A stretch of 11,445 nucleotides of DNA from a virus. Its lineage: Duplodnaviria; Heunggongvirae; Uroviricota; Caudoviricetes. The notes below the pieces were generated by a model. The model ran no database searches and was not told the DNA's origin. It saw nothing but the letters and a program-made list of their open reading frames with translations. A program made the position numbers and the translations under genes. Location: the IMG/VR virus record IMGVR_UViG_3300029653_000033. One strand, written 5' to 3'. This document shows, piece after piece, positions 1-1,434 of this stretch. Each line of letters starts with the position of its first letter. Positions within the stretch are counted from its first letter, which is position 1.

Positions 1-1434
1 GCGTGCACTCCATGTGTTAGCCGTGCTCAACAGGGGGATCTTTTCACCGCTGGTACCGAGTTCTCTTAAACCAAGGTATTGGATAACAGCAAGAACGCTT
101 GTTTTGGCCAGAATATCGCGACCAACTGACGTTAAGTCAGTCTGAGAAACAGTGTCTGTACCGGTAAAGTACGGCAATTTATTTGCGCCTGTCGCAAGAC
201 CAGCAAGCGCGGTTAAAGTTGCATCAAGTGGCTGTTTCCCTGCCAGCGCATTTGTCATTGTTGTCGCAAAGTTCGGGTCATTGCCCAGTGCTGCTGCAAG
301 CTCATTCAGGGTATCAAGAGCTTCAGGTGATGAGCCGACCAATGCAGAGATAGCAGCCCGTACGTAAGCAGTCGTAGCGATCTGCGTATTGTTTGTGCCC
401 TGTGCAGCCGTAGGCGCAGTAGGGACACCCGTTAATGCAGGGCTTGCCAAAGGCGCTTTGAGAGCCAAGGCATTGTTGATAGTTGTGCTGTAATTCGGGT
501 CGTTATTGATCGCAGCCGCTATTTCTTTCAGCGTATCCAGTGTGCCAGGCGCACCGTTGATAAGTGCAGTTATAGCTGCCTTAACAAAGGCTGTATTTGC
601 GATCTGCGTGCTGTTTGTACCTTGCGCTGCCGTCGGCGCTGTTGGCGTTCCTGTCAGACTCGGGCTTTCTATTGGCGCTTTGGTATCAGCCAGATCTTTT
701 ATAGACTTAACAGCTTTAGGGGTAGCCGCCATTGTTTCGCTGTCGCTGTTAGTTGCGCTACTGAGCTGAACTAATCCCTTTTGCGTTGTGCTTGCATCCT
801 GCGCCGTATACTTGCTTTTCGCCAGATCGTAGGCTTTTTTAACTGCCAGCGAACTTGCAGCAACATCACTTCTGGTACTGGTTACAGAGTCTGAAATATC
901 AATGCCGATCGTGCGGTTGATACGCTCGGATGTATCAATCATCTCCTGGGTAATAGCAGATACACCAGCAGGGATATTCACCGTACAAACAAGCAGCTCC
1001 CCATCTCCTAACTGATATGAATCGGTATAGGTTCTGGCAACAAATTCAGCCGCATGAATATGTGACGCGGTATTCACCTGATAGGTATCTTCTCCAAGGA
1101 GGTATCTTCCCTTCAGCACAATTGCATATTTCTTGCCTGCACTAAGTGCAAGAGAAATATCCTTACGTTGCTGAATAGTTACCTGGTAGAATTCACCAAT
1201 ATCCACCGACGCCGCGCCTGCGGTTTTATCACCATCCACTGAGGTGATTAACAGGTTCATCCCACCGCCAGGCTTAGGTAAAAAACCGGCATAAAATCCC
1301 GGGTCAACAATCCCCCTGAATTTTCGGTTTAGCGCGGCTGACAGATATGGTTCGTGGTATTGCACATCAGCCACCAGAGCCAACGACTCGGGTGATGGGT
1401 AAGTAACCGATGTGACAACTGTAACGTCATTCAT
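1..1434 (-). CDS. Phage tail fibre protein, N-terminal constant part (P2 gpH / Mu S / P1 S-like); partial, 3' end runs off the window start
   Basis: Not in the ORF track because it has no in-window stop. I translated it by hand: ATG at 1434..1432 preceded by AAGGA (1445..1441) at 8 nt spacing; open for 478 codons to position 1. Begins MNDVTVVTSVTYPSPESLALVADVQYHEPYLSAALNRKF... Contains ...KKAYDLAKSKYTAQDASTTQKGLVQLSSATNSDSETMAATPKAVK..., closely matching the conserved LSSATNS-SET-AATPKAVK block of P2 gpH-type fibres as I recall it, followed by two tandem ~74-aa repeats with the motif LTG-PTAPTAAQGTN-TQIA-TA-V. Start is 11 nt after the stop of the upstream gene. Confidence 0.85.
   Translation of the reverse strand, partial: MNDVTVVTSVTYPSPESLALVADVQYHEPYLSAALNRKFRGIVDPGFYAGFLPKPGGGMNLLITSVDGDKTAGAASVDIGEFYQVTIQQRKDISLALSAGKKYAIVLKGRYLLGEDTYQVNTASHIHAAEFVARTYTDSYQLGDGELLVCTVNIPAGVSAITQEMIDTSERINRTIGIDISDSVTSTRSDVAASSLAVKKAYDLAKSKYTAQDASTTQKGLVQLSSATNSDSETMAATPKAVKSIKDLADTKAPIESPSLTGTPTAPTAAQGTNSTQIANTAFVKAAITALINGAPGTLDTLKEIAAAINNDPNYSTTINNALALKAPLASPALTGVPTAPTAAQGTNNTQIATTAYVRAAISALVGSSPEALDTLNELAAALGNDPNFATTMTNALAGKQPLDATLTALAGLATGANKLPYFTGTDTVSQTDLTSVGRDILAKTSVLAVIQYLGLRELGTSGEKIPLLSTANTWSAR
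61..86. promoter_or_regulatory. 26-bp crossover site of the cix/gix/hix type for a serine DNA invertase (Cin/Gin/Hin/Pin family), inside the tail fibre gene
   Basis: Plus strand TTCTCTTAAACC AA GGTATTGGATAA: two imperfect 12-bp inverted half-sites around a 2-bp core. It fits the family consensus TTnTCnnAAACC-nn-GGTTTnnGAnAA with one half-site mismatch and is very close to hixL as I recall it (TTCTTGAAAACCAAGGTTTTTGATAA). In the fibre reading frame it encodes ...VIQYLGLRE... Confidence 0.7.
223..666 (-). repeat. Two tandem ~222-bp (74-codon) repeats within the tail fibre gene, about 445..666 and 223..444
   Basis: Protein units SPSLTGTPTAPTAAQGTNSTQIANTAFVKAAITALINGAPGTLDTLKEIAAAINNDPNYSTTINNALALKAP and SPALTGVPTAPTAAQGTNNTQIATTAYVRAAISALVGSSPEALDTLNELAAALGNDPNFATTMTNALAGKQP. 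Nucleotide similarity is visible too, e.g. gcgatctgcgt...tgtttgt.cc.tg.gc.gcc.t.ggcgc at 378.. and 598.. Boundaries approximate. Confidence 0.75.

Follow-up and report, generated by a model that had tools for sequence, protein, structure and literature searches.

The 26-bp sequence at positions 61..86 of the window, the 11,445-base stretch of DNA analyzed here, is almost certainly cixR, one of the two crossover sites of the Cin/cix inversion switch of a P1-like plasmid prophage (Punavirus). The switch itself is already known: it is the C-segment system of phage P1, and its differences from P1 are allelic. The earlier note on this DNA had named P1 merely as an analogy for an invertible arrangement of this kind; its interpretation was right, and the system present here is the P1 C segment itself. 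No evidence counter to the Cin/cix reading was found, and every defining feature that can be tested is present. The window holds one site and 73 bp of the segment, and what lies further left (partner site, invertase, alternative genes) was read in the matching plasmid record, NZ_CP034659.1 (locus L003), with NC_005856 as the phage P1 reference.

The whole window aligns to positions 40794-52238 of NZ_CP034659.1, a plasmid of E. coli ATCC 98082. Base-by-base comparison over the first 8434 bases returned 2 mismatches, none of them within 1..1434. Across 1..1434 the window shares 99.0% identity with P1 gene S, and of the 14 substitutions in those 1434 bases none falls inside the 26-bp site. All long ORFs lie on the minus strand, and by alignment the window covers tail-fiber, baseplate and tail genes of a Punavirus, a P1-like phage-plasmid. 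Annotation transferred from P1 places here the constant part of S (1434..74), R (1880..1446), gene 16 (2798..1959), bplA (4228..2795), pmgA (4584..4225), sit (7973..4581) and pmgB (8936..8055), all on the minus strand. At position 8297 (pmgB codon 214) the window has G, as do all other P1-like loci, and NZ_CP034659.1 has A, a synonymous difference (Leu). The window therefore represents a slightly different version or isolate than NZ_CP034659.1.

At position 5014, within sit, the window has T; the base is G in NZ_CP034659.1 and in six further P1-like plasmids, and the T changes codon 987 of 1130 from TCA (Ser) to TAA. This position was compared by means of a 41-mer, to which the P1 reference has no match. 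The TAA (5013..5015, minus strand) splits this tape-measure/transglycosylase gene into ORFs of 986 aa and 134 aa. When a T at 5014 was sought in the plasmid collection, no record carried it, the best match being NZ_CP034659.1 with one mismatch. The stop codon may truly knock out tail assembly, or it may be an error of sequencing. Toward the far end of the window, an IS1 terminal inverted repeat (GGTAATGACTCCAACTTATTGATAG...) starts at about 11317 (window about 11317..11445), and homology to other P1-like plasmids ends at 11322. Beyond this point NZ_CP034659.1 carries IS1A, then a truncated ORF, ysgD, corA, a further copy of IS1 and IS26. The element resides in a replicon of 454 kb, a plasmid that also holds other IS copies and genes of chromosomal type, corA among them. 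The IS1 end and the gene order downstream of it therefore indicate that the P1-like element is interrupted or cointegrated within the 454-kb plasmid.

Gene S begins with an ATG at 1434..1432 on the minus strand and remains open past position 1, giving 478 codons without a stop. Its constant N-terminal part, Sc (codons 1-453; 74..1434, minus strand), is delimited by identity to P1, where the stretch is annotated as “constant segment, Sc, of gene S” (M81956), and it contains Phage_fiber_2 repeats (Pfam PF03406, 1.2e-27). Two tandem 74-aa repeats, the “repeated elements” b1 and b2 of P1, occupy 235..678 (S codons about 253-400); they have 50 of 74 residues in common, and the Phage_fiber_2 motif is found in both. 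Tandem Repeats Finder, run on 1..1500, returned no repeat, and a DNA repeat search gave just one 20-nt chance pair. DNA repeat finders missed b1 and b2 because the two are 63% identical as DNA, and their likeness is visible at the protein level. Upstream of S on the same strand, gene R (1446..1880) encodes a 144-aa tail-fiber structural or assembly protein in the position of P1 R (P1_gp033), the first gene of the R-S-U late operon. The late promoter LPs, consisting of a -22 box and a -10 box, is predicted at 1911..1929 (minus strand) from the P1 annotation (L002 8911-8929), and would function as in P1. Over the 31 bp compared around LPs there is 1 mismatch to P1, at window position 1920, between the annotated boxes.

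The first 73 bp of the invertible C segment lie at 1..73 (minus strand) and include the start of the variable part, the Sv/Sv' common region. They belong to the right 0.62-kb inverted repeat, at its outer end, in agreement with the P1 annotation of the invertible segment and of Sv. The window thus ends inside an invertible segment, as had been proposed, and reaches 73 bp into it, not the suggested 60 bp or so.

The sequence at 61..86, TTCTCTTAAACCAAGGTATTGGATAA, is composed of TTCTCTTAAACC AA GGTATTGGATAA, two imperfect 12-bp inverted half-sites around a central AA. The half-sites agree at 8 of 12 positions and so form an imperfect palindrome. Base for base, the site is identical to cixR of phage P1 and to the corresponding site of six other P1-like plasmids. 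The P1 feature labeled “recombination site cixR; region of Cin recombinase binding” (NC_005856 36471-36490) corresponds to window 64..83, and the annotated P1 crossover (36480/36481) falls at window 73/74, which follows codon 453 of S. If the P1 annotation is transferred on the strength of this identity, the central AA (73..74) would be the strand-exchange point and the right boundary of the invertible C segment. The earlier note had placed an invertase crossover site at 61..86, in the fiber gene and about 450 codons from its start, and both the site and its position are confirmed: cixR spans S codons 450-458 (VIQYLGLRE), with the central AA 1361 nt (453.7 codons) from the ATG.

An independent reference was provided by the two Mu gix sites (gixL and gixR), taken from the Mu record at the annotated boundaries of the G segment. 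The sequence at 61..86 matches each of them at 21 of 26 positions and is unique in the window in doing so; the next-best window position reaches 16/26, and the maximum over 30 shuffles was 18/26. The chance test rests on this comparison, which replaced a degenerate consensus pattern derived in part from 61..86. That pattern matched only at 61..86 and in 0 of 200 shuffles, a result given less weight on account of its partial origin in the site.

To the left of cixR, the genes of NZ_CP034659.1 are arranged in the order cin, cixL, Sv', U', U, Sv, cixR, Sc. Of the inverted matches to the window site, the strongest is cixL (CAATCCTAAACCTTGGTTTAAGAGAA, L003 2765-2790), which overlaps the 3' end of cin, as in P1. 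Both cix sites of NZ_CP034659.1 are identical to those of P1. When the two are read inward from their ends, the inner half and core (TTCTCTTAAACC AA) are identical, and differences are confined to the outer halves. The crossover points of cixL and cixR are 4296 bp apart in this record. The sites occupy the outer ends of a pair of 636-bp inverted repeats (98% complementary, 3046 bp between them), with arms at L003 2767-3402 and 6449-7084; the right arm ends at window position 84. Between the sites, a fiber C-terminal ORF, Sv' (L003 2821-4335), and the chaperone gene U' (L003 4338-4871) lie on the plus strand and oppose the chaperone gene U (L003 4900-5427) and the full-length S (L003 5429-8434) on the minus strand. 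Both U proteins match Caudo_TAP (fiber assembly).

The invertase gene, cin (L003 2213-2773, plus strand), adjoins cixL. Its product of 186 aa is identical to P1 Cin at 185 of 186 positions (99%) and contains the domains Resolvase (4e-51) and HTH_7 (1.9e-18). The best match among solved structures is the Gin invertase 3UJ3 (2e-89, 182 residues aligned); Ser9 is present in Cin, and the crystallized Gin variant has Ala at that position. Inside the 5' end of cin, a 72-bp stretch corresponds, with 2 mismatches, to the annotated P1 enhancer of Cin-mediated inversion, and is a putative recombinational (Fis-binding) enhancer. An inverted copy of the site, opposed fiber C-termini with their chaperone genes and a serine recombinase of about 190 aa had all been predicted to lie leftward of the window, and each has its counterpart in NZ_CP034659.1: cixL, Sv and Sv' with U and U', and Cin. 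About 500 bp upstream of cin, an IS3-family element, ISSen4 (L003 609..1729), is located between the holin genes lydA and lydC, where P1 has no insertion.

Conservation of the cixR sequence could also be that of a relic, with the switch dead through an inactive cin or a degraded cointegrate and the fiber fixed in one form. Such a history would suit an element that lies inside a 454-kb plasmid record and has insertions of IS1, IS26 and ISSen4 close to it, and the nonsense codon in sit suggests a prophage that may no longer make virions. Damage to cin or to the C segment is also frequent among published P1-like plasmids (PMC6906374). However, cin is full length here, with a single residue different from P1 Cin and Ser9 kept; both cix sites are identical to those of P1, the enhancer has only 2 changes in 72 bp, and both fiber/chaperone sets are intact ORFs. 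Inversion moreover requires just Cin, Fis and the sites, and not a viable phage. We therefore consider a dead switch unlikely, and favor a Cin/cix switch that is intact in its components.

Orientation of the segment was compared by taking the same region from six further P1-like plasmids, each at least 99% identical to the window across Sc, and aligning these to NZ_CP034659.1. One of them, pMTY2330_IncY, was left out of the orientation count for its different segment content. Of the seven related P1-type loci whose segment content agrees, four share one orientation of the segment and three have the opposite one, the flanks being collinear. Phage P1, pEC21Z048-103K and p1540-3 (locus L009) are collinear with NZ_CP034659.1. 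In NZ_CP016549, pTK3896_3 (NZ_AP045046) and NZ_CP122833 the segment is inverted and both flanks are collinear: L003 2767..7084 is reversed as one block in NZ_CP016549 (98.5%) and in pTK3896_3 (96.1%), and in three blocks (90-98%) in NZ_CP122833. Between NZ_CP034659 and NZ_CP016549, the identical chaperone proteins WP_015974242 and WP_039023050 exchange place and strand, and the invertase WP_001697769 keeps its place. Nine arm-specific SNPs, 559-622 bp from the crossover, move with the segment. Flipping the segment in silico, so that Sc is joined to the left arm, produced an open S' frame of 972 codons, and the alternative fusion S' is therefore in frame. These alignments, made between isolates and not within one culture, indicate that the segment occurs in both orientations in nature. 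This supports the inversion, and with the content of NZ_CP034659.1 also the host-range switch, that the earlier note had envisaged, in which a constant fiber part is joined to alternative C-termini.

The inverted-repeat arms are identical over the first 558 bp from the crossover, so the natural exchange can be placed only somewhere within that 558-bp stretch, and comparison of isolates does not by itself separate Cin action at cix from homologous recombination. The differences in orientation might accordingly be ascribed to RecA-dependent recombination between the 0.62-kb inverted repeats, instead of to Cin at the 26-bp site. This explanation is very improbable in view of established P1 genetics: in accounts of the work of Iida et al. 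in 1982 and of Hiestand-Nauer and Iida in 1983, inversion in P1 reportedly depends on cin and maps to the cix sites. Also against it, the repeats are much shorter in pMTY2330_IncY (about 155 bp aligned) and in p1540-3 (first arm mismatch 70 bp from the crossover), whereas the cix sites that bound them on the outside are conserved in full. Lastly, although the site is short, we dismiss the notion that 61..86 is a chance palindrome-like sequence in a fiber gene, free of any recombination function, since only 1.8e-4 gix matches at 21/26 are expected by chance in the window, the sequence is identical to the annotated P1 site, a partner stands at the opposite end of the inverted repeats, and the segment is found inverted in nature.

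Under the Cin/cix reading, S is split by cixR into the constant Sc (window 1434..74), outside the invertible C segment, and a variable part that starts from window position 73, and the gene for Cin is located just past cixL, some 4.3 kb leftward of the window. Dimers of Cin would bind cixL and cixR and, together with the Fis-bound enhancer in the 5' end of cin, assemble an invertasome. Ser9 would then cut both strands of each site at the central AA, staggered by 2 nt, half of the complex (one half-site pair) would rotate by 180 degrees, and the ends would be religated. The invertasome chemistry, the Fis dependence and the exact crossover point are drawn from knowledge of the Hin/Gin/Cin/Pin family and of P1; by analogy with published P1 experiments, strand exchange at the central 2 bp would be Cin-dependent. 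Flipping of the roughly 4.3-kb segment would leave Sc and LPs joined in frame to either Sv and U or Sv' and U', and transcripts starting at LPs would cover R, Sc and the Sv/U pair joined at the time. The expected outcome is virions with S or S' fibers, two alternative tips and two host ranges. In P1, Cin-mediated inversion of the C segment at cix switches between S and S' fibers and host range (bioRxiv 10.1101/2022.07.24.501295; PMC6906374).

The P1 C segment (NC_005856) has the same cixR and cixL 26-mers, located in the same place in S, after codon 453. It also shares with NZ_CP034659.1 the gene order cin-cixL-Sv'-U'-U-Sv-cixR-Sc and the 0.62-kb inverted repeats, and P1 and the present element are close in Cin (185/186) and in Sc DNA (99.0% identity). 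The segment is 4256 bp long in P1 compared to 4296 bp in NZ_CP034659.1 (40 bp longer). Beyond this, the two differ in a diverged distal Sv and in the location of the present element, which is in a 454-kb plasmid record with IS insertions. Phage P7 has a Cin/cix system as in P1.

The nearest separate system is Gin/gix of Mu. Its G segment is built like the C segment: the fiber gene is divided into Sc and Sv, S/U alternates with S'/U', and the invertase is encoded alongside. The gix sites stand exactly at the annotated G-segment boundaries. In Mu, however, the site comes as early as about codon 170 of S, the G segment measures about 3 kb and has short inverted repeats, and the central dinucleotide is GA/TC in gix versus AA/TT in cix. 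Comparison of family sites at the DNA level covered Mu gix, and the family consensus is otherwise general knowledge. Salmonella Hin/hix and e14 Pin/pix belong to the same family of Fis- and enhancer-dependent serine invertases acting on 26-bp sites. The Hin DNA-binding domain (1HCR) matches the Cin C-terminus (6e-10), but Salmonella Hin flips a promoter, whereas gene ends are exchanged in Cin/cix. Site-specific inversion also varies the fiber tip in the Min system of p15B, for which the P1 record notes P1-like flanks, and the pilus tip in the R64 shufflon. Both p15B Min and the R64 shufflon have several crossover sites and many isomers, and the latter uses a tyrosine recombinase. The present element, in contrast, has two sites and two isomers.

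Within the distal Sv of NZ_CP034659.1 (L003 about 5474-6175), only 311 bp align with P1, at 90%, and the fiber tip of the source element probably differs from that of P1(S). A host range unlike both P1(S) and P1(S') may follow from the diverged tip, though we put this forward tentatively and lean somewhat against it. If true, this would amount to ordinary allelic variation in a switch already known, in a region outside the window. In pMTY2330_IncY (NZ_CP128959.1; locus L007, 1269..7084), cixL and cixR are identical and bound a much larger segment of about 5.8 kb, with inverted repeats of only about 155 bp and fiber C-termini that are longer and different. From this plasmid, the cix sites appear to be a conserved cassette boundary for exchangeable fiber modules.

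The Cin/cix switch has been characterized since the early 1980s, and what the earlier note recognized, from the raw sequence alone, is a genuine recombination site. Since the 3' end of gene S alternates, annotating it in the window as a single fixed ORF would be wrong. Where P1-like phage-plasmids are used as transduction tools, or tracked as resistance vectors, host range is set by the orientation of the segment together with the Sv allele.
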